64,000 nt of DNA from a virus. The notes under the pieces are model-generated. The model was not told the DNA's origin. It ran no database searches and saw only the letters and a program-made list of their open reading frames with translations. Within the stretch, counting starts at the first letter, position 1; each line of letters begins with the position of its first letter. The translations under genes were made by a program, and so were the position numbers. Location of the stretch: positions 10,335-74,334 of IMG/VR virus record IMGVR_UViG_3300034198_017445; one strand, written 5' to 3'. Positions 28,221 to 64,000 of the stretch are shown here, piece after piece.

Positions 28221-28636
28221 AAGCATTAACAATTTCGCAGCCATACGCATCTCTGATCGCATCCGGCGAGAAGTGGGTCGAGAACCGAACGTGGCAGACC
28301 AGCTATCGCGGTGAGTTGGCAATCCATGCTGGGCTGGGGAGTCGGTACTTGAAGAAGGAGCAGCTTGCTGATTACCCGACCGGATGCGTGATTGCAATCG
28401 CTCGGCTGGTCGCTTGTGTGTCGGCTGCTTCAATCTCGATTCAAGGACACGACAGGAAGTTAGGTTCTGTTGTGATTCCAGGGTCCAAAGTGACGTGGCT
28501 TGAAGCCTTAACGCACAAGCATGCAGAAGGTCCATGGTGTTGGATCCTGGAGGACGTTCGAACGATCGATCCAGTTCAAGTCAGGGGTGCTCAGCAGCTT
28601 TGGGAGTTCGACTACAAGAGTGAGGTGGTGAAGTGA
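28217..28636 (+). CDS. ASCH domain protein
   Basis: MKALTISQPYASLIASGEKWVENRTW..YRGELAIHAG. Confidence 0.9.
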   Translation: MKALTISQPYASLIASGEKWVENRTWQTSYRGELAIHAGLGSRYLKKEQLADYPTGCVIAIARLVACVSAASISIQGHDRKLGSVVIPGSKVTWLEALTHKHAEGPWCWILEDVRTIDPVQVRGAQQLWEFDYKSEVVK

Positions 28637-29325
28637 CGCATTCGAGACGGGCGTTCATGGCTCGGGCTGTCGTAGCTGGCGCGGCAACGTTATACGCTCC
28701 GACCGTCTTGCTGCGAGAGAGCATCGATCGTGAGGCGATCCTTCGATCGTTTTGCGTGCGGGAGTATTGCTGTCGATACGACATTGCTGATCCGTTTTCT
28801 CAGGGTGCTTGGACCTACGCGACCGATGCGAGATGGATCGTTCGTGCTGAGTTGGTGTCCATGGTCGACGACGGCGAGCCGAAGCGAAGACCAAACGCGG
28901 AGTTGATTTGCAGTGGGCTGTGGGACGACAGCGCGGTAATGCGAGAGTTCTGCATGCCTGCTCTCGATCATCTTGTGGAGGGGTACGAAGATTGTCCTGT
29001 ATGCAAGGGGCGGCGCATTGATGTGCGCGATAACTGGACTGCCTACACTGGCGATCTTGATTTCGATCCTGATGACGGAACCATTGCTGACCGATCGTGT
29101 GCTTGGTGCTGGGATCCGGTAAAGAAAAAAACTAAGAGCAAGATCAAAAGTTGCGTCATGTTTGGCGATAAGGTTTTTGGTGCCAATCGCCTAGCCAACA
29201 TTCTTTCGATTCCGGACGTGCGCATCGCGGAAGTTTCGCGAAAGGGTGCGTTCGAGGATTCAGGTCTTATTCAGTTCGAAGGTTCTGGTTTCAGCGGATT
29301 TATGACTGGAATGAAGTATGAGTGA
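28633..29325 (+). CDS. Hypothetical protein with CxxC pairs and a twin-arginine-like N-terminus
   Basis: SRRAFM; CPVC; CAWC. Confidence 0.6.
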   Translation: MTHSRRAFMARAVVAGAATLYAPTVLLRESIDREAILRSFCVREYCCRYDIADPFSQGAWTYATDARWIVRAELVSMVDDGEPKRRPNAELICSGLWDDSAVMREFCMPALDHLVEGYEDCPVCKGRRIDVRDNWTAYTGDLDFDPDDGTIADRSCAWCWDPVKKKTKSKIKSCVMFGDKVFGANRLANILSIPDVRIAEVSRKGAFEDSGLIQFEGSGFSGFMTGMKYE

Positions 29326-29695
29326 AGCACACGAAAGAAGATGCTTTGACTGCGGAAACGTCACGCAGCATTCGAGCAGCATTGTGCCTGGGGTGCTCTG
29401 CAAGAAGTGCGGAAGTCAGGATACGCGACGGGTCAAGGAGGCTTCTAGTCCATCGCGCAACTATCTCAATGATCCGAAGTTCGAGAAACGAATGATTCTG
29501 TTTTTTTATTGGGCGATGTGTTGGCATCGGCAGTCTGGAGGATATCTTGCTTCCGATACGTCGCTGATGTTGATGCACGTCACGGCGTATATTGTCGAGA
29601 TGGCTGCGAACCATCCAGAGATGAAATGTTTTTTGCCCGAAGAAAACGAGGGACCGATGAGTCATCAAGCACAACCGGTTCCTCCGTCCGTTTAG
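29318..29695 (+). CDS. Zinc-ribbon hypothetical protein
   Basis: CFDC...CKKC. Confidence 0.55.
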   Translation: MSEAHERRCFDCGNVTQHSSSIVPGVLCKKCGSQDTRRVKEASSPSRNYLNDPKFEKRMILFFYWAMCWHRQSGGYLASDTSLMLMHVTAYIVEMAANHPEMKCFLPEENEGPMSHQAQPVPPSV

Positions 29696-29732
29696 CGATC
29701 GGTACAACCGATCCGAAAGAAAGAGGCTTGAA

Positions 29733-30041
29733 GTGAAGACTACTATTTTGATTGGCGTGTTGTTGGCAGCGGTTCGGATTTGGCTTGGGTTTAACATCGA
29801 GCCTGAATCGTTTCGCTGGGACCAAGTCTTCAAGGACGCGGCGCACTTGTTCATGGGTGGTCTTGCTGTCGCGTGGTGGTTCAATAGGTATGAGCTGACC
29901 GACGAAGACTGGGACGATACCGAGGACAACAGTGCTCTGTTTGAGGCGCTGACGTGGTGTCTTTTGCAACCGTGGCAATGGTGGTTGTTTTGGTCGCTTA
30001 ACGCGATTGAGGTTGCTGTCGCTGTCCTGAGTCGAATCTAG
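29733..30041 (+). CDS. Small membrane protein
   Basis: Hydrophobic segments; GAGG RBS. Confidence 0.55.
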   Translation: MKTTILIGVLLAAVRIWLGFNIEPESFRWDQVFKDAAHLFMGGLAVAWWFNRYELTDEDWDDTEDNSALFEALTWCLLQPWQWWLFWSLNAIEVAVAVLSRI

Positions 30042-30343
30042 CTTGCTCAGCGGCTTTGTTGCGGAGATGGGTCGGTTACGCATGCCTGCTCGGAGGCGTT
30101 GTTTCTGAGGCGATAGACGCGCGTTCGCTTCGTGCCTGTCCTGAGGCTTTGTATCTGGAATAGAAGCCGCTAGTGAACCTGCCTGGAGGTTTTGTTTCCT
30201 TGACGGAATTGAGTCTGGCTTATTGCCTATCAAGCGGCGTAATTGCTTGGAGTGCGATCCATTTGAGCCTGCCATGAGGCTTTGTTTCGTGGACAGGAAT
30301 TCAGCATGATACAATGCCTGCCTAGCGGCTTTGTTGCTGGGAT
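30041..30343 (+). CRISPR. Orphan structure-conserved CRISPR-like array B (7 units)
   Basis: 28-nt units at 30041, 30084, 30134, 30177, 30225, 30267, 30316; consensus GCCTG-N6-GGC-TTTGTT-N6'-NN; spacers 14-22 nt. Confidence 0.8.
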
Positions 30344-30374
30344 CATTCGAATCTAATACCAAGCGAGGCAGGTA

Positions 30375-30938
30375 ATGGCACGAGTAATTCGTTGGCGGTT
30401 TACGAAGGAGGCTGGTACCAATGGATCCAGTTTTAAGGCCGATGCCATAACCCAGGTGATGATCCCTCGGTTCCTGCGGTACTGGGATGTGGATTTCCAG
30501 CAGTTGACAACGATGGCAGGAACGCCACACGTCACGTTTCGGCTGACGACTCGGACGGTCAGTACGATGTGGACGAACGGTCCGGTGATCCATATAAACG
30601 CCAAGTTCAAATGGGGCACTTCGCTCGCGGCGCGTGAGCAAATGGGACTGTGCCTATGTCATGAGGTTGGTCACTGGTTGTCGCCATCGAATCCGATTCA
30701 CGCTGCCAGTGTTGGAAACGTCATGTTCGCTCAGGTTGGCGATCCGTACCTAAATTGGACGCTGGTCGACATGAAGTGGTTTGGCATGCTTCCGTGGCGA
30801 TCCACCTTACGTCCGTGGCACGAGAAAACGCACTGGTATCCCTTACCAAAGGTTGCAATGGGGCTGTCGGGGCATGAAGATCACGAGATTCTGGAGCCTA
30901 TCGTGCTTGGTTGCGGTAAGAATCATCGAAAAAATTGA
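30375..30938 (+). CDS. Zinc metallopeptidase (matrixin-like)
   Basis: CHEVGHWL....H followed by NVM Met-turn. Confidence 0.7.
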   Translation: MARVIRWRFTKEAGTNGSSFKADAITQVMIPRFLRYWDVDFQQLTTMAGTPHVTFRLTTRTVSTMWTNGPVIHINAKFKWGTSLAAREQMGLCLCHEVGHWLSPSNPIHAASVGNVMFAQVGDPYLNWTLVDMKWFGMLPWRSTLRPWHEKTHWYPLPKVAMGLSGHEDHEILEPIVLGCGKNHRKN

Positions 30939-31005
30939 GACGTTTTGGCGTTCGTCTCGGCTTAGTATGTGTGCTTGGTTCTGCTCTTACTTTTGGAGTT
31001 TCAAA

Positions 31006-31422
31006 GTGTCTCACGTTGCTACTGTCGATGTTGTCATCAAGGATCTGGATTGTCTTCAAAAGGCAGCGGAATCGCTTGGTCTTGTGTTCAATCGGGACGC
31101 GAAGACGTTCTACTCGTATCAGTCTGGGCTGACCTGCGATCACTCGCTGTCGGTCAAGGAAAAGCAAGCGAACCCGAATCGCCGACCGTATGAGATCGGA
31201 GTCGTGAAGGGAGAGGGTGGTTACTCCCTCCAATTCGATCCGTTCAACCATGGCTATGGCTTGTGTCCCTACATCGAGTCGGAACCTGCAAAGGGCGACG
31301 CTGGAAAACTGGTACAGGCTTACGCTCTGGAGGTTGCCAAGAAGCAGGCTCGGATGCAGGGTTTTTTGGTTCGCGAGGTTCGCGCTGCAAACGGTGCGGT
31401 GACATTGACGCTGTCGCGATAG
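31006..31422 (+). CDS. DUF1257 (Ycf35)-like protein
   Basis: MSHVATVDVVIKDLDCLQKAAESLG...YEIG...L.QAYA...ARMQGF. Confidence 0.75.
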   Translation: MSHVATVDVVIKDLDCLQKAAESLGLVFNRDAKTFYSYQSGLTCDHSLSVKEKQANPNRRPYEIGVVKGEGGYSLQFDPFNHGYGLCPYIESEPAKGDAGKLVQAYALEVAKKQARMQGFLVREVRAANGAVTLTLSR

Positions 31423-31477
31423 TTTCGCGGCGGTTGGTTTGGTTGGTTTCTGTCGGCATCAAATTGGAAATAAAATC

Positions 31478-31672
31478 ATGAGCGAACAAATCAAGATCGA
31501 GATAAGTCCTGTAGGCGCGGTGAAGGTGTCGGTTCAGGGCGTTGCTGGTTCCGGTTGCAAAGATCTAACCAAAGCGATTGAGGCGTCTCTGGGGGTCGTG
31601 ACTGAGGACACAAAAACGGGGGAATTTTACCAGACGGCAAAGGCTGGTCAGGTGGTTACCCAAGGAGGGTAG
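31478..31672 (+). CDS. DUF2997 family protein
   Basis: IEISPVGAVKVSVQGVAGSGCKDLTKAIEASLG...TGEFY. Confidence 0.85.
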   Translation: MSEQIKIEISPVGAVKVSVQGVAGSGCKDLTKAIEASLGVVTEDTKTGEFYQTAKAGQVVTQGG

Positions 31673-31673
31673 T

Positions 31674-31937
31674 GTGGCTGGAGATCAGTTTCGGGGTGAT
31701 CACTATTTTGAGGTCTATGCGCGTCGAAACATCGGGGGCGTGCGTAGCTCTGTGACCTGGGTTGTTAAGGTCCGGTCCATGGCGAGGTTCCAGGCTCATT
31801 GCCGGTGCTATCGTGATTCCGAGAAAATGCTGGAGCACTCTCCTGGCTGGCTTTTGGTCGTCACTGAAATTAATGAGACGACTTTCGATCGCATGCGGCT
31901 ATTAGGATATGGTCGCGAGTTTGAGTTCGTCGGTTAA
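31674..31937 (+). CDS. Hypothetical protein
   Basis: GGAGG RBS. Confidence 0.5.
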   Translation: MAGDQFRGDHYFEVYARRNIGGVRSSVTWVVKVRSMARFQAHCRCYRDSEKMLEHSPGWLLVVTEINETTFDRMRLLGYGREFEFVG

Positions 31938-31956
31938 CGGGAGCTGTGCTGTGGAA

Positions 31957-32190
31957 ATGCAAATTCGGTTTGGTGGTGACGGGGTGGTGACAGCGGTTTA
32001 CGCGGATGACCTGATGCCAGTCCTGAGTTCGATCGGCGGGACATCCATCGTTCGGGCTTCCAACGTGGAGCCCGTTGAGGGTGGCTGGGAGGTCGCCATA
32101 GTCGACGGTCCGAAGTTCGGTCCGATCGTGCGTCGCGATGATGCGATCGCTGCTGAGGTCCAATGGTTGCGTGATAACGGGAGAGCGTAA
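31957..32190 (+). CDS. Small conserved protein recalled as linked to DUF1257/DUF2997
   Basis: G....VY....RASNVEP..W....GP..GP..RR..A..AE..WL. Confidence 0.6.
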   Translation: MQIRFGGDGVVTAVYADDLMPVLSSIGGTSIVRASNVEPVEGGWEVAIVDGPKFGPIVRRDDAIAAEVQWLRDNGRA

Positions 32191-33002
32191 TGTTTCGGGA
32201 TGTTGTGTCACATATTGAAACGCATGAGCAGTATCATGCGAGGCGTGAGCTGTCGACTTCGATGGTCAAGGACTGGATTCATTCGCCAGAAATGTACCAT
32301 CGTCGGAACGTTCTCGGCATCAAGAAAAAAGCCACTGATCCTATGGATTTTGGTAATGCGGTGCACGAAGACCAGTTGTTGTCAATTTGGGAGCAGACTT
32401 ACATTGTCATTCCCAAGGAGGTACTGGCTACCAACGGTGCGCGTCGTGGTAACGCTTGGGATGCGTTCAAGGCAGCGAACGAAGGAAAGGTTTTACTCAA
32501 AGAGCAGGACGTTGCTGATTTGGTTGCTATTCGCGAATCGATCGCTGCAAACCCGGACGCGAGGTATCTCCTGGAGTCCGAGGGTCTGTCGGAAGTTTCC
32601 CTGGTTGGCTGGGCAGATCTTCCCGGCGAGGAGGGTGCTGGTACTCACTACCGTGGCAGGCTTGATCGTGTCATGCAGGCTGGTGAGCGTAGGATCGTTG
32701 ACCTGAAAACGACCGGCGACATGAGTCCACGGGCGATGCGGTACAAACCGTTGGATTCGTGCTGGGATATTTCCGGCATGGCTTACTCGAAAATGTGGGA
32801 GGCGATGACCGGCGAATTATTGCCGGTGGATTTTATCGTCGTCGAGACGTGCGAGCCGTATCGGGTTGAGGTATACTCACCTAGCAAAGCGACGCTTGCG
32901 ATGGCTTTGGATCGCTGGCTTGAGGCTGTTATCGGCATCCAGTCGGCTGTCGCAAATGGGTACTGGCATCGTGACGGTTACCCTGCGAGAATCATGTTTT
33001 AG
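32190..33002 (+). CDS. PD-(D/E)XK exonuclease VIII/RecE-like (DUF3799-like)
   Basis: YHA..ELSTS, MDFGNAVH, RGRLD, IVDLKTT. Confidence 0.85.
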   Translation: MFRDVVSHIETHEQYHARRELSTSMVKDWIHSPEMYHRRNVLGIKKKATDPMDFGNAVHEDQLLSIWEQTYIVIPKEVLATNGARRGNAWDAFKAANEGKVLLKEQDVADLVAIRESIAANPDARYLLESEGLSEVSLVGWADLPGEEGAGTHYRGRLDRVMQAGERRIVDLKTTGDMSPRAMRYKPLDSCWDISGMAYSKMWEAMTGELLPVDFIVVETCEPYRVEVYSPSKATLAMALDRWLEAVIGIQSAVANGYWHRDGYPARIMF

Positions 33003-33458: not shown

Positions 33459-33499
33459 GCGCACCTGGGTTACTCCCGTTTCCCAGGTGCGTTTTTTTT
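33459..33499 (+). terminator. Intrinsic terminator
   Basis: GCGCACCTGGG/CCCAGGTGCGT stem followed by T8. Confidence 0.8.
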
Positions 33500-33579
33500 G
33501 CGCTGGCGTGAGACGTTTTGGCGTTCGTCTCGGCTTATGTATTAGTGGTGTTCTGTTTTTCACGTTCTGGAGTCTGGCT

Positions 33580-34539
33580 ATGAGTGTTGTTGTCGAAAAC
33601 GGAGTTATGGTGTTCGAGGACGGCGCGTTGATGCAGACCGTCGATATCAATTTGCTATTGCAAGGGTTGCATGCGTTCCACGCTGAGTGTCCGAAAGTAT
33701 TCAAGTCGGAATGGAACAAACAGCTAAGTTCGTACTATGCGGATCTGGCTACGATCTTGGATACGATCAGTCCGTTTCTTGTGAAGTCTGGACTGGTGTT
33801 GACCCAGGCGGCGTTTGGTAACAATCTCGCGACGACTCTGTATCACACGTCCGGTCAGTGGATGCGAGTGACGACCAAGTTCGAGGTTCTTGATGCTGTG
33901 AGGTATCGCACGGGGGATAAAGGCGAGATCGATGTTCGCGGTGTCACTCCGCAGACCTACGGTTCTGCTCTGACCTATGCGCGTCGATACGCAGTGGGTT
34001 CGATCCTAAGTCTCACGATCGATTCGGATGACGACGGCAATGGTGGGCAGGGCGACGATCCGCGTCGACGCTACTCGGGAAATTCACCTGGAAGAACAAT
34101 GAACCAGAACTCTGCTCCGAAGGCTGGAAGTGCGAAGCCTGCGGACGCAAATCCAAAGATCGAAGTTCCAAAGGCTGACGTTGCTCCTGCGAAGATTGAG
34201 CCGTTGTCGAACGCGAAGATTTCCGAGATCGTGACTCGAATCGGCGAAAGCACTCTGGAGAAGATGCCTGCATGCGAGGCTGCGTTGACGAGGTACGGTT
34301 CATCATCGTCTATCACCAAGGCGTTGTGGGGGGATTTGATCGATGTTTTATTGGGTCGCTGGATATCCTTGGAGTCTGTCGATGGTGTTGAGGCTTTGCG
34401 TGCAAAAGTGACCGCCTACGGTGGTCGTAGTTTGCTTCCGAACGAAACAGTTGTACGGCTGATTGGTGCCATCGATGAGCGTATCGCGGTGAACCAGGAG
34501 CCACAAGAAAAGGTCGAGGGGTCATCCGATGGTCAGTGA
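33580..34539 (+). CDS. ERF-family ssDNA-annealing protein
   Basis: YADLATIL, TTLYHTSGQWM, QTYGSALTYARRYA, DDDG. Confidence 0.9.
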   Translation: MSVVVENGVMVFEDGALMQTVDINLLLQGLHAFHAECPKVFKSEWNKQLSSYYADLATILDTISPFLVKSGLVLTQAAFGNNLATTLYHTSGQWMRVTTKFEVLDAVRYRTGDKGEIDVRGVTPQTYGSALTYARRYAVGSILSLTIDSDDDGNGGQGDDPRRRYSGNSPGRTMNQNSAPKAGSAKPADANPKIEVPKADVAPAKIEPLSNAKISEIVTRIGESTLEKMPACEAALTRYGSSSSITKALWGDLIDVLLGRWISLESVDGVEALRAKVTAYGGRSLLPNETVVRLIGAIDERIAVNQEPQEKVEGSSDGQ

Positions 34540-46009: not shown

Positions 46010-47758
46010 TTGAGCGTTAAAAACTGGGTCTATGGTGGTAAGGTTCCTACGCCACAAGAGGCTGTCGATGAGGCGATCTTCACGGCGCACAAGTATCGAA
46101 ACAAGCTGTGTGAGTTGGAGCTGGAAAAACGGAAGCGGCACTACGATTTGTTGCGTCGGCTTGCTCCTGAGTTTGTTGCTGCTGAGGAAACGGTCGCGAC
46201 GTTGGAGGCGGCGCTGGGTGCCTGTCGCGAAAAGATCCAAGCGGAACGGGTGAAGCAGCGGACGAAAACTCCGACTGGGTGCAAGACCTGGATTGCCGAA
46301 AGTGCGGACATCAAATCGCGGTTAAAAGATGCGCGTGCAGTCTTGAAGGCTGCGAAGCATGCGGCTTACGATGATCCTGCTGTCAAGGCTGCGATGGATG
46401 CGAACAGCGAGCAGCATAAATCCGAGTGTGCTCAAGCCAAGCAGGAGTCCGGGCTGTACTGGGGGACCGAAGCGGTGATCCGTGATTCGTGTCGATCGTT
46501 TGCGAGTGGTGCTCCACCGAAGTTTGCGCGGTATGAAGGGCGCGGTCAGTTGGCTGTCCAAGTCCAAGGCGGGATGGATTGTTCCAAGGCGATCGATGAG
46601 AACACGTTGGTCTACATCGTTGGCGAGGGTCGGAAGCGAACGGCAAAGGTTCGCATTGCTTCGGACGGTGGGCGACCGGTGTTCGCGGATCTACCGATCG
46701 TGTTCCATCGGGACTTGCCTGACGGCGCTATCAAGTGGGCGTTCCTGCAGAAGCGGATGCGTGCGAACAAACCGAAGTACAGCTTGCGTCTTGCGATCGA
46801 CGTTGCTGATCCTGTCGATGTGCAGGTTCCTCCGGGTGAGGTTGCGATTCACGTCGGCTGGCGAAAGCACGGGGACGGATTAAAGGTCGTGACTTGGCTC
46901 GGGAGCGACGGCGAGAAAGGTTCGCTCGTGCTTCCGGCTTCTCATTGCGAGGACTATCTCAAGCTGGACAAAATCAAGTCGGAGCGTGACATCGAATTCG
47001 GAAAGGCGATTGATCATTTGCGTGGGTGGCTGGAGTGTCGTGGCGATGTGCCTGAGTTCTTGGAGGAGGTTCGATCGCACTTGCATGCGTGGAAGTCTCA
47101 GAAGCGGTTGGCTGCTCTCGTGGTGGCTTGGCGCGATGCTCGCTTCGATCCGTGGGATATTGATATTTTCGAGTACCTGGAGGCGTGGCGAAAGAAGGAC
47201 AAGCATGCATGGCAGCACGATGCTCGGTTGCGGGAGCGAATCGCTGGTCGTCGCAAAACGATCTACCAGACGTTTCTGTGTGGTCTTGCTCGGAGGTACG
47301 GAGTGGCGATCGTTGCTCCGATCGATGCGAAGGAGTTGACCGAAAACAGCGAGCCAGAAGACTTGACGGCGGATCCAACGTTGCAGCATCGGCGTGCGAA
47401 GTGGGCTGCTGTATCGACGCTGATTCAGTACGCTCGCGAAAAATGGCCTGAACGCTGCATCGAAGTGGACGGTGCGAACATGAGTCGCCAGTGCATGCGG
47501 TGCGGTCACGTCAACGAACCGCAAGGCAAGCGGGTGCAGTGCCATGGTTGCGGTGCTACTTGGGATGTGGACATCAACGCGGCTACGGTTATGCTCGAAC
47601 GTGGTCAGGCTGCGGCGCGTGATGGTGCTCTTGATGCGTTGGTTGAAGCGAAGGAAAAGAAAGCCGAGGCTGCTCGCGAGAAACTTGCAAAGATGATACA
47701 GGCGCGGCGTGATGCTTCTGCTCGCAAGCGTGCTGAGATGGAGGGCAGCGAGGCTTAG
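46010..47758 (+). CDS. Cas12m (type V-M)/TnpB-like RNA-guided protein, RuvC probably inactive
   Basis: AHKYRNKLCELE, long coiled coil, GLYWGT, PPKFARYEGRGQLAVQVQGG; RuvC-I VAIHVGWR (His for Asp); no Glu at RuvC-II (IVAPID); Zn finger CMRC/CHGC; RuvC-III DVDINAA. Confidence 0.85.
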   Translation: MSVKNWVYGGKVPTPQEAVDEAIFTAHKYRNKLCELELEKRKRHYDLLRRLAPEFVAAEETVATLEAALGACREKIQAERVKQRTKTPTGCKTWIAESADIKSRLKDARAVLKAAKHAAYDDPAVKAAMDANSEQHKSECAQAKQESGLYWGTEAVIRDSCRSFASGAPPKFARYEGRGQLAVQVQGGMDCSKAIDENTLVYIVGEGRKRTAKVRIASDGGRPVFADLPIVFHRDLPDGAIKWAFLQKRMRANKPKYSLRLAIDVADPVDVQVPPGEVAIHVGWRKHGDGLKVVTWLGSDGEKGSLVLPASHCEDYLKLDKIKSERDIEFGKAIDHLRGWLECRGDVPEFLEEVRSHLHAWKSQKRLAALVVAWRDARFDPWDIDIFEYLEAWRKKDKHAWQHDARLRERIAGRRKTIYQTFLCGLARRYGVAIVAPIDAKELTENSEPEDLTADPTLQHRRAKWAAVSTLIQYAREKWPERCIEVDGANMSRQCMRCGHVNEPQGKRVQCHGCGATWDVDINAATVMLERGQAAARDGALDALVEAKEKKAEAAREKLAKMIQARRDASARKRAEMEGSEA

Positions 47759-47768
47759 GGTATGGTTC

Positions 47769-49351
47769 TCCTGCTCATGGGAGTTGTTCATGAGATAATG
47801 ATCTGGAATATGCTAATGCCTATCAATCGGCTTTGTTGCTTGAAGACGAACTATGTGGCTGATCGGTGCCATCGTTACCGAAAATATGGGTCTGTTGCGT
47901 TATCGCCAATCGCGAGGCTTTGTTTCGCTGATATCGATGCAGTTCACCGCCTGCTCGGAGGCTTTGTTTTCGAGATACAACGACGTGGTTGCTTTTGATT
48001 TTATGCCTGCTAGGTGGCATCGTTACATTGGCTCGAACTTGAATTTCATTCATTGCGTGCGATGGGGCATCATTCCATTGACATACCCGTAAGCCTGCTC
48101 GGAGGCGTTATATCGGAGACAAAAAGCATACGGGGAGACTATTTGGACTGCGATTGATTTGCCTGTCGTGAGGCGTCGTATCGCGAAAACGAGATTGATC
48201 ACATGATTCCGCCTGCGGACCGGCTTCGTTGGTCCGGCGCAAGGACATCGTTGCCTGCTCAGAGGCATTGTGTCTGAGACGTTCGCGAGAACTTCGATCT
48301 GTCGCCTGCCATGAGGCTTTGTGTCATGGACGGAGTCCATAATGCCCGAAAGTGAAACCAAAAACATACCGATCAGCTCGGTCACAAATGCTCTGTGGGA
48401 GTGCCGTGATTGCGGCTGCGAGTCGAGCGATGTGTACTGGTTCAGTTGTTTGGGTGCGAGGCTCAAGAAGCCGAGGTGCGCGTGCTGCCATGAGAAGGCG
48501 GTCGTCTCTGGTTCGTCTGTTTACGAAGAAGGGACTATTGAAATGTCTGGTTGCCAGCAACGGGTGTACGGTAGGCATGTTCGGGGAATCTACTTGTTTC
48601 GGGAGGAGAAGTAACTTGCTTGTGCCTGTTCGGAGGCATCGTATCCGTGACGACCACTGTTTTACCCGCCTGCGCTGGGGCGTCGTTTCGGTGAGTGTGA
48701 CTACACAATCTCCTGCGCGGTGGAGTTGTAACCGTGGCCAGATTAGCGATTTTGCTTTAAGCCTGCATGGAGGCATCGTATCTATGACCCCATTGTGCCG
48801 TGTTCATTGCCTGCTCGGAGGCGTCGTATCCGAGATGAAACATTTGCTATCTCGTTTTCATTGCCTACCGTGAGGCGTTGTTTCATGGATCCGACCATAG
48901 CTTCCGGCGTGGCTTTGTAGCGTCGATGGCCTGATTGCGTGCGCCTGCTTGGAGGCTTTGTTTCCTTGGCTCAATACGATCAGTGAGAATTTTGCCTGCT
49001 CAGTGGCGTTGTAACTGCGATCCAGGATTTGGTTGGCGTATCGCCTGCTTGGAGGCTTCGTTTCCTGAACATGATGCATCGCTGCTCAGTGCCTGCTCAG
49101 CGGCTTTGTTGCTGGGATGAAAAGTCACTTTGCCATCTATCGCCTGCGGACCGGCGTGGCTGGTTCGACGTCAGCCATTTTTTGTAATCGTCACGAAACT
49201 GTTTCATGACGGTTTTGTCCTGCGCATCGGACTTGTTGGTGCGACAACGCGGAAAATGTGGAAAGTATTGATGGTGCTCGGATGAAATTGGAATCGTCAC
49301 GAAACTATTCTGTGACGTGTTTTGCCTGCTCGGAGGCTTTGTATCCGTGAC
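47769..49351 (+). CRISPR. Structure-conserved CRISPR-like array A (26 units, split by a small ORF)
   Basis: 28-nt units at 47769, 47818, 47857, 47905, 47949, 48005, 48055, 48093, 48161, 48211, 48253, 48304, 48624, 48668, 48711, 48761, 48809, 48863, 48900, 48943, 48994, 49043, 49091, 49142, 49218, 49324; covarying stem and pseudoknot. Confidence 0.85.
48342..48614 (+). CDS. Small Cys-rich zinc-finger-like protein embedded in array A
   Basis: GGAG RBS; CRDC...CACC; fills the gap between units 12 and 13. Confidence 0.6.
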   Translation: MPESETKNIPISSVTNALWECRDCGCESSDVYWFSCLGARLKKPRCACCHEKAVVSGSSVYEEGTIEMSGCQQRVYGRHVRGIYLFREEK

Positions 49352-63419: not shown

Positions 63420-63547
63420 GGGTCGGCGGCGTGGTGTGCAACACGCGCAGCCTGAGGCTGTGATTCCCTGGTTCAATGAACCGACTGAAAAGCGGGATGA
63501 ATTGAATCAGTGTGAATTTGATGCAGGTTCGAATCCTGTCCGATCCA
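63420..63547 (+). ncRNA. tRNA-like element 2
   Basis: GGGTCGG/CCGATCC acceptor stem; GCGT/ACGC D-like arm; GCAGG-TTCGAAT-CCTGT T-arm; no canonical anticodon arm; T-run follows. Confidence 0.55.
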
Positions 63548-63573
63548 TTTTTTTTAATCAGTGGAGTTTGGGA

Positions 63574-64000
63574 ATGGAAAAAACGATCTATCACGGACGC
63601 TACGTTGCATCGAGCAGCGGGGCGATTTCAAACGCGGAAACTGGGCGAGTGCTTCGCGGCGGGAGAACGTCGAAGGGGTACTTGTCGGTTTGTCTCTATG
63701 ACGGGTCGAGTCCAAAGCGACCGAAGTCTTTTATGATCCATCGTCTTATCGCGGAGGCGTTCTTGGGTGATGGTGATGGCAGGCAGGTCAATCACAAGAA
63801 CGGCGATAAAACGGACAACCGTCTTGAGAATCTCGAATGGGTTACGCTTCAAGAAAACATTGATCACTCTCGGCAGGTGCTCGGCAAGACTCAGCACGGC
63901 GAGACAAATTCGCGATGTAAGATTCCTGCGGATGTGGTGGTGCAAATTCGAAAGAGGGATCGGACGGCGCGATCCTGGGCGGAAGAACTTGGTTGCAACA
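63574..64000 (+). CDS. HNH homing endonuclease (runs off the window end)
   Basis: Translated by hand: GYLSVCL...IHRLIAEAFL...VNHKNGDKTDNRLENLEWVT. Confidence 0.85.
   Translation, partial: MEKTIYHGRYVASSSGAISNAETGRVLRGGRTSKGYLSVCLYDGSSPKRPKSFMIHRLIAEAFLGDGDGRQVNHKNGDKTDNRLENLEWVTLQENIDHSRQVLGKTQHGETNSRCKIPADVVVQIRKRDRTARSWAEELGCN

Follow-up and report, generated by a model that had tools for sequence, protein, structure and literature searches.

What function could be served by a row of small RNA folds that fills the gap between two viral genes, with no cas gene beside it, in a genome whose only CRISPR effector is encoded 15.7 kb further downstream? The locus lies in one complete virus genome of 74,334 bp, in which all called genes are on the + strand, and it is described here in the coordinates of the window, the 64,000-nt stretch of this genome that was analysed. 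The array in question, at 30041-30343 (array B), consists of seven 28-nt units on the + strand, each followed by a distinct sequence of 14-22 nt. A larger set of units with the same handle (array A) is located just downstream of cas12m. In the initial annotation, array B had been regarded as an orphan array whose guides are supplied in trans, possibly at a different stage of infection.

Features of array B and its flanking genes, the effector gene and array A, in window coordinates
Feature	Coordinates	Strand	Description
upstream gene	29733..30041	+	102 aa; hydrophobic segments; no family match
unit B1	30041..30068	+	pseudoknot GCT/GGC; stem CTCAGC/GCGGAG, 5/6 pairs; 34.1 bits; nearest A22 (49091), 3 differences
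spacer 1	30069..30083	+	15 nt; matches not above chance
unit B2	30084..30111	+	stem CTCGGA/TCTGAG, 6/6 pairs; 36.9 bits
spacer 2	30112..30133	+	22 nt; 20-mer not in IMG/VR
unit B3	30134..30161	+	stem TCCTGA/TCTGGA, 5/6 pairs; 35.3 bits
spacer 3	30162..30176	+	15 nt; 10 nt complementary to B7 handle (30322-30331)
unit B4	30177..30204	+	weakest stem, 4/6 pairs; pseudoknot jointly switched to ACC/GGT; 28.2 bits
spacer 4	30205..30224	+	20 nt; not in IMG/VR
unit B5	30225..30252	+	GCCTA, stem TCAAGC/GCTTGG, 6/6 pairs; 25.9 bits; nearest A02 (47818)
spacer 5	30253..30266	+	14 nt
unit B6	30267..30294	+	stem CCATGA/TCGTGG, 6/6 pairs; 38.5 bits; z -2.7; 2 differences from A11 (48304)
spacer 6	30295..30315	+	21 nt, AGGA-N7-ATG; not in IMG/VR as 20-mer
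unit B7	30316..30343	+	stem CCTAGC/GCTGGG, 6/6 pairs; 37.6 bits; z -2.2; 2 differences from A22
downstream gene	30375..30938	+	187 aa; HEVGH motif; no family match
cas12m	46010..47758	+	582 aa; sole effector in genome; matches PDB 23vw Cas12m
array A	47769..49351	+	25 units with array B's handle; interrupted by a 90-aa ORF (48342-48614)

All units share the same geometry, which comprises GCC-TG, a 6-nt arm, GGC-NTNGTN, the complementary 6-nt arm, and a final A-N. A covariance model derived from the array B units and the repeats of relatives yields 32 matches in the complete genome and none other, seven in array B (25.9-38.5 bits) and 25 at 47769-49351, all of them on the + strand, corroborating the seven units of a single fold that had been claimed for this place. 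An independent Logan contig of 1,091 nt, assembled from the same source run, equals 29849-30939 with zero differences. The near-identical direct repeats of ~36 nt with regular spacers of ~30-38 nt are a feature absent from array B: its periods are 43, 50, 43, 48, 42, and 49 nt, nearest-neighbour units differ at 2-9 of their 28 positions, and the 5' 8 nt of the canonical repeat are not conserved. A weak T/A-rich signal is found in the 5 nt preceding each unit and may be part of the repeat, in which case the guides would be shorter still. Two other explanations for the repetition were discarded. A protein-coding tandem repeat is at odds with periods that are not multiples of three, and the sole long ORF over the region, which could have pointed to a gene on the opposite strand, is antisense and lacks a PHROG match.

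The spacers are all unique, none being common within array B or to array A. The end of spacer 6 (..ACAAT) resembles the 5' part of the canonical 36-nt repeat. The same spacer had been described as resembling a ribosome-binding site and a start codon; the pattern itself is present, but the frame that it would open runs for 16 codons through the next unit and is indistinguishable from chance. In addition, positions 30164-30173 of spacer 3 are the exact reverse complement of the B7 handle at 30322-30331, a match with a chance expectation of ~0.1 in 300 nt that may be a coincidence.

Some possible traces of the growth of the array can also be recognised. A 24-nt direct repeat at 30017-30040 and 30332-30355, 75% alike and with TCGAATCTA at its end, flanks array B and may be the footprint of a tandem duplication. 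Its first copy, which lies in the last codons of the upstream gene, resembles the 3' arm and spacer start of a lost unit. The periods of the array alternate between short and long, and so, roughly, does the inner stem pair (C-G in B1, B5, and B7; A-T in B2, B3, B4, and B6), which hints at growth through the duplication of two-unit blocks.

With regard to its genomic setting, B1 begins on the base that closes the upstream gene's stop codon, and only 31 nt separate the end of B7 from the next start codon. The flanking genes had been described as encoding a membrane protein and a metallopeptidase; hydrophobic stretches and one HEVGH motif are indeed present, although these are the only features in favour of such assignments, and neither protein has a Pfam or PHROGs match. 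Array B is embedded in a block of co-oriented small genes of unknown function that precedes genes for an exonuclease (32190-33002), Erf (33487-34539), and a helicase. Since the array fills the entire gap between two co-oriented genes, its transcription as part of the operon is probable. A scan of 28500-31500 for promoter and terminator consensus sequences gave results at chance level, two of the 'terminators' being the handles themselves. Neither a blastn search of 28600-32200 against GenBank phages nor an IMG/VR scan with the downstream HEVGH protein returned a match or a close relative, respectively. Elsewhere in the window, ARAGORN reports a permuted tmRNA at 63458-64000 that runs off the window end, with the tag ARQDSARRDKFAM; this call is probably false, as Rfam gives nothing there.

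The product of the gene at 46010-47758 is assigned by its sequence to Cas12m, type V-M. A family profile matches 23vw with an E value of 1e-133 and Cas12m2 (8hhl) with 2e-77 (3.6e-45 for the single sequence), and the protein holds a TNB domain like that of Cas12f1. Its RuvC site is reduced to H-x-D, with H281 in RuvC-I, D521 in RuvC-III, and no acid in RuvC-II (IVAPID), where Ala-Pro occupies the position of Asp-Asp in Cas12m2 and of Glu in distant homologues. H233-R234, invariant across the close clade, aligns with H269-R270 of Cas12m2, which touch the crRNA scaffold (PMC10442227). Cas12m proteins with D-E-D, H-D-D, or N-D-D triads bind DNA without cutting it, and their crRNA processing is independent of RuvC (PMC11013384); an H-x-D protein can therefore still plausibly mature and use the RNAs of the arrays. 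The activity of the phage protein is nevertheless not assured, because the RuvC-II acid that is kept in the studied Cas12m proteins is missing from it. About 90 homologues were collected, the closest being P0002 (66% identity, on a 91-kb contig) and P0003 (64%). A single-protein IMG/VR scan found no close relative, and tblastn against GenBank phages returned one record, KX853510, at 31% identity.

The scaffold design of Cas12m, with a short helix, a 6-bp helix, a pseudoknot, and an A at -2, is present in the units, and the 32 aligned units allow it to be scored as a 6-bp stem (columns 6-11/21-26) and a 3-bp pseudoknot helix (columns 1-3/12-14). Pairing is found in 94% of the paired cells, vs 70% in column shuffles and ~40% when the partners are slid, and there are 69 double-sided changes vs 20.5 in shuffles, a value reached by 0 of 500 shuffles. 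The pseudoknot pair 1-14 has switched jointly four times, to TCC/GGA three times in array A and once in B4. ViennaRNA favours a simple hairpin extension instead; this alternative contains no joint change and has more mismatches, which makes the pseudoknot the better model. The unpaired bases T4, T16, G18, T19, and A27 are also kept in the units. Support for the fold comes from covariation, not from energy: the folding of the whole array is uninformative (z of -1.45 for the + strand and of -0.83 for the - strand), and that of single units is mostly unremarkable (z from -0.05 to -2.7). An Rfam search returned no family for the array.

These data bear directly on whether array B is still in use. 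Its heterogeneous repeats and short, irregular spacers, the poor stem of B4, the unremarkable thermodynamics of most single units, and the blank target searches described below would all be expected of a once canonical array that has lost its function and is decaying. Pairing is, however, kept at the same rate in array B alone (59/63 pairs) as in array A (212/225). Had the array B units drifted at random from their nearest array A units, 47.9 pairs would be expected instead of the 59 seen (P < 1e-4), and 53.9 if random bases had been placed at the same differing positions (P = 0.003). The changes that separate array B from its nearest counterparts thus preserve pairing far beyond random change, which suggests that selection acts on the RNA structure of array B itself. 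Together with the compensated pseudoknot change in B4, the retention of the unpaired contact bases, and the fact that a tightly packed genome has retained these 300 non-coding nt, this renders a dead relic very unlikely.

The two arrays are closely related. In both of them nearly every repeat differs from the others, and the period is 42-50 nt instead of 72-75 nt. The stem variants claimed to occur in both arrays are found in each: CCATGA at 30267 and 48304, CTCAGC at 30041 and 49091, and GCCTA-TCAA at 30225 and 47818, with CTCGGA repeated at 30084, 47949, 48093, 48809, and 49324. Every array B unit is nearer to one array A unit than to other array B units, the closest twins being B6-A11 and B7-A22 (2 differing positions each), followed by B1-A22 (3), B2-A07 and B4-A19 (4 each), and B5-A02 (5); random subsets of seven units are as close as observed in 1% of trials. 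The absence of common spacers, also claimed previously, holds as well, with best local scores between the arrays equal to those of shuffled spacers. Specific near-twins with unshared spacers indicate that units or unit types have been moved or copied between the arrays while the guides differ.

Array A shows some particularities of its own. The ORF that interrupts it encodes a Cys-rich protein of 90 aa without a Pfam match and is situated directly 3' of A11, with GGAG as the first bases after the handle. The B6 spacer agrees with the start of this ORF in 9 of 13 bases, not above shuffled scores. Near the end of array A there are two near-identical terminator-like hairpins (~49165-49215 and 49283-49323), each consisting of AATCGTCACGAAAC...GTGACG and a T run, and each followed by one more handle unit.

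The arrays of relatives define the canonical format. The Cas12m homologues in 20 IMG/VR loci, 12 metagenome loci, and one Pirellulaceae MAG contig are followed by arrays with a period of 72-75 nt and near-identical repeats of ~36 nt, whose 3' 28 nt correspond to the core of the phage's unit. When the covariance model was run over whole viral records, remote units were found in several of them: G405 (179 kb) has cas12m flanked by an array on either side, five units in a further array ~62 kb off, and several lone units; G402 has units ~40 kb from cas12m; and G406 has one lone unit at a distance of 12 kb. As several related phages carry remote arrays and lone repeats, the orphan array can be considered a trait of the group. 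Among the relatives read, which did not include the P0002 and P0003 contigs, the compact heterogeneous format is found in none except L025, where three diverged units lie close together directly before cas12m.

Handle units just upstream of cas12m are also present in other relatives of the H-type clade (L025:9811-9946, L024:139-397, and L030:467-494), the last of them 40-45 nt before the start. Those of L025 are 43 and 65 nt apart, and in L024 the 8 nt that come after the handle are identical for two units (AGAAAGAC). Such units may serve autoregulation or represent a 5'-UTR handle. Furthermore, the otherwise canonical arrays of L001 (12393-12447 and 12584-12638) and L010 (12907-12962 and 13035-13090) include short units with a period of 55-56 nt and spacers of ~19-20 nt, which may be intermediates towards the compact format.

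Five canonical spacers from four relatives match the phage genome or contig that carries them. Two are from G402 (L001/L043; G402:1744-1781 and 2045-2084), with 3 and 2 mismatches, and the others from L033 (L033:44-81; 2 mismatches), G406 (L047; G406:16238-16272; 1 mismatch), and G405 (L046; G405:19251-19290), the last one being perfect (36/36). Four of the five have a mismatch within the first six guide positions, usually at positions 2-6, and no common motif is found in the 5' flank. From sequence comparison, these near-self matches fit arrays directed against closely related rivals, from which the copy in the carrier phage would escape, and the perfect match in G405 could represent self-regulation instead, which a non-cutting effector would allow. 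Given that arrays with the same handle hold phage-matching spacers, this family of handles is taken to be used for DNA targeting.

No such near-self matches are found in the genome of this phage, where exact, seed-anchored, and full-length mismatch searches with the array B spacers perform like shuffled controls. Planctomycetota, the phylum of the sole cellular MAG with a Cas12m homologue, was chosen for a further search, and its 401 genomes yielded 16 matches at E <= 0.05, with ~20 expected. The three longest spacers (2, 4, and 6), searched as 20-mers, are absent from IMG/VR. Spacer matches thus do not exceed controls in any of these three sources, an outcome that the initial annotation had named as one half of what would speak against its reading. 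For array A, the same 401 genomes gave 9 matches at E <= 0.01 with ~4 expected, which is about chance, and its best spacer match, an exact one of 23 nt, runs into the handle and is read as a chance match. These results constitute a blank rather than a refutation, given how little information is contained in a guide of 14-17 nt. A separate stretch of 29 nt in a planctomycetotal locus (L048; G113:C104:2825-2853) is 93% identical to the 7 nt before A02 and the first 22 nt of its handle, and might stem from a V-M array of cellular origin whose repeat is of a similar kind.

The blank searches would also agree with a role at the RNA level, in which the units are docking or cutting sites for Cas12m in the polycistronic mRNA of the phage that separate or regulate the flanking cistrons, the spacers being mere linkers. 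Array B spans the distance from a stop codon to 31 nt before the next start, leaving no room for a promoter of its own; A11 precedes the 90-aa ORF with its GGAG; units are found close to the start of cas12m in L024, L025, and L030; and some spacers in array A are as short as 9-10 nt. Nevertheless, a processing site would not require as many as seven tandem units, no two spacers are the same, their lengths cluster near that of a working guide, and the relatives' arrays with the same handle carry phage-matching spacers of 35-40 nt. We consider this the main alternative for array B, though an unlikely one, and both roles can coexist.

Another possibility is that array B produces a decoy or hijacking RNA, whose handles imitate the repeat of a type V-M system in the host and either soak up or redirect the host's Cas12m. 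Lone phage repeats that inhibit host CRISPR systems have been described (PMC11656645), as have crRNA-like RNAs by which viruses hijack the Cas proteins of their hosts (10.1101/2024.10.29.618823), and the short spacers would be suitable for such a task. RNA anti-CRISPRs are, however, recognised by the lack of a cognate effector in the phage, and this phage encodes its own Cas12m, with the same handle variants beside the gene. No V-M system is known from the host. Because the phage provides the effector itself, a decoy appears highly improbable.

The reading that we favour, and regard as probable, is that array B is a working trans-acting guide array, transcribed with the operon and processed into crRNAs of ~45 nt, which load Cas12m and silence host or rival DNA by binding. 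The absence of a cas gene beside the array makes guides supplied in trans the natural reading, and the earlier proposal to this effect is strengthened by two observations: the units are true copies of the handle of the phage's single Cas12m, and relatives also possess remote arrays. According to the proposed mechanism, array B would be transcribed as part of the surrounding operon and the transcript cut into ~45-nt crRNAs, which would be loaded in trans onto the only Cas12m of the phage. The resulting complexes are predicted to bind matching, PAM-flanked DNA without cutting it and to block transcription or replication, with targets that would belong to the host or to a competing element. Each step, from transcription through processing and loading to DNA binding, is inferred here, as is the kind of target. 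The use of array B at a different stage of infection is only suggested, on the basis of its location in a separate co-oriented gene block.

The compact format also fits this function. In Cas12m2, the first 7 of the 36 nt of the repeat are disordered, and the scaffold is made up of a 6-bp helix and a stacked stem, with the helices recognised via the backbone and an optimal guide of 17 bp (PMC10442227). The mature crRNA of PmCas12m comprises ~33 nt of repeat and ~17 nt of guide (10.64898/2026.03.26.714355). A 28-nt unit with its spacer of 14-22 nt is about the size of a mature crRNA, and the units vary only at positions where Cas12m reportedly contacts the backbone. The repeats would have drifted apart with their fold held by selection, and the parts lost would be those that are absent or disordered in the mature crRNA, namely the first 8 nt of the repeat at its 5' end and any spacer sequence past ~17-22 nt. 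Against this reading, the spacers of B1, B3, and B5 (14-15 nt) are below the 17-nt optimum, and the relatives read, with their canonical arrays, lend the compact format no comparative backing.

The two arrays have the look of a guide set that is hard-wired and streamlined, and no cas1 or other adaptation gene was noted in the genome. As a speculation, the divergence of the repeats could shield the array from the recombination activity of the phage's own exonuclease and Erf. A more specific version, which we put forward tentatively as possible rather than probable, is a hard-wired, CRISPRi-like form of multiplex silencing, where minimal diverged units are perhaps recombination-proof against Erf and the exonuclease, and two operons time the guide sets for one nuclease-dead Cas12m.

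In comparison with known systems, the phage shares with MmCas12m2, GoCas12m, MsCas12m, and PmCas12m the effector family, the pseudoknot and stem scaffold, and the A at -2 (PMC10442227, PMC11013384, 10.64898/2026.03.26.714355). It also resembles type V-M in general in having no tracrRNA, in the typical absence of adaptation genes, in the non-canonical RuvC triad, and, by family likeness, in non-cutting DNA binding. Unlike type V-M, its units are of 28 nt instead of ~36, nearly all of them differ, the period is 42-50 vs 72-75 nt, the RuvC site is further reduced to H-x-D, and the system resides at two loci 16 kb apart in a lytic-looking 74-kb phage. V-M is known mainly from plasmids and 'some prophages' (PMC11656645), and the Cas12m of the myxophage MV-1 has been called the first from a phage (10.64898/2026.09.14.751636). 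MV-1 also has a Cas12m without cas1 or cas2, and no protospacers were found there either (10.64898/2026.09.14.751636); it differs in its D-E-D triad and in having only one array, in which eight spacers are combined with a single consensus repeat, and no remote array or heterogeneous repeats are described for it.

The near-self spacers of the relatives, with their few mismatches, follow the pattern of mini-arrays that target rival viruses, a pattern absent in this phage. The mini-arrays studied in viruses reportedly use the effector of the host, and their repeats are identical to one another, whereas this phage brings its own effector, with differing repeats and no near-self matches. The likeness resides in the short, cas-less arrays in viral genomes, discussed as virus-borne mini-CRISPR or orphan arrays in inter-virus conflict (PMC6858448).

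Array B is also similar to crRNA-like regulatory RNAs with degenerate repeats and short, partly matching spacers (10.1101/2023.03.03.530964) in combining a degenerate repeat with a short guide, to be used, as predicted here, for repression and not for cutting. Regulators of this type include scaRNA, tracr-L, and CreA. They are single units by cas genes with a known target at the same locus, unlike the seven units found here, which are far off and have no self target. TldR proteins offer a further parallel as RuvC-inactivated members of the TnpB/Cas12 lineage that employ fixed guides for transcriptional control (10.1101/2023.11.30.569447); they use one long guide of the omega-RNA type per gene, in contrast to the multi-unit arrays of short crRNA handles in this phage. 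Orphan Cas12m arrays are known in the group, and the novelty is in the compact, structure-only, heterogeneous format of both arrays and in their distribution over two loci.

Cas12m is known as a DNA-binding silencer from bacteria and plasmids, and reports of it in phages are very recent. If array B works as proposed, the phage would keep fixed guides at several sites of its genome without spacer-acquisition genes, and evolution could compress an array down to the handle and ~17 nt of guide. In that case Cas12m may also recognise the handle mainly by its shape, as suggested by the differences in stem sequence between units. Natural arrays of this non-repetitive kind would offer a template for compact, recombination-stable multiplex guide arrays, and knowledge of the targets would reveal whether Cas12m is directed by phages at their hosts, at rivals, or at their own genomes.
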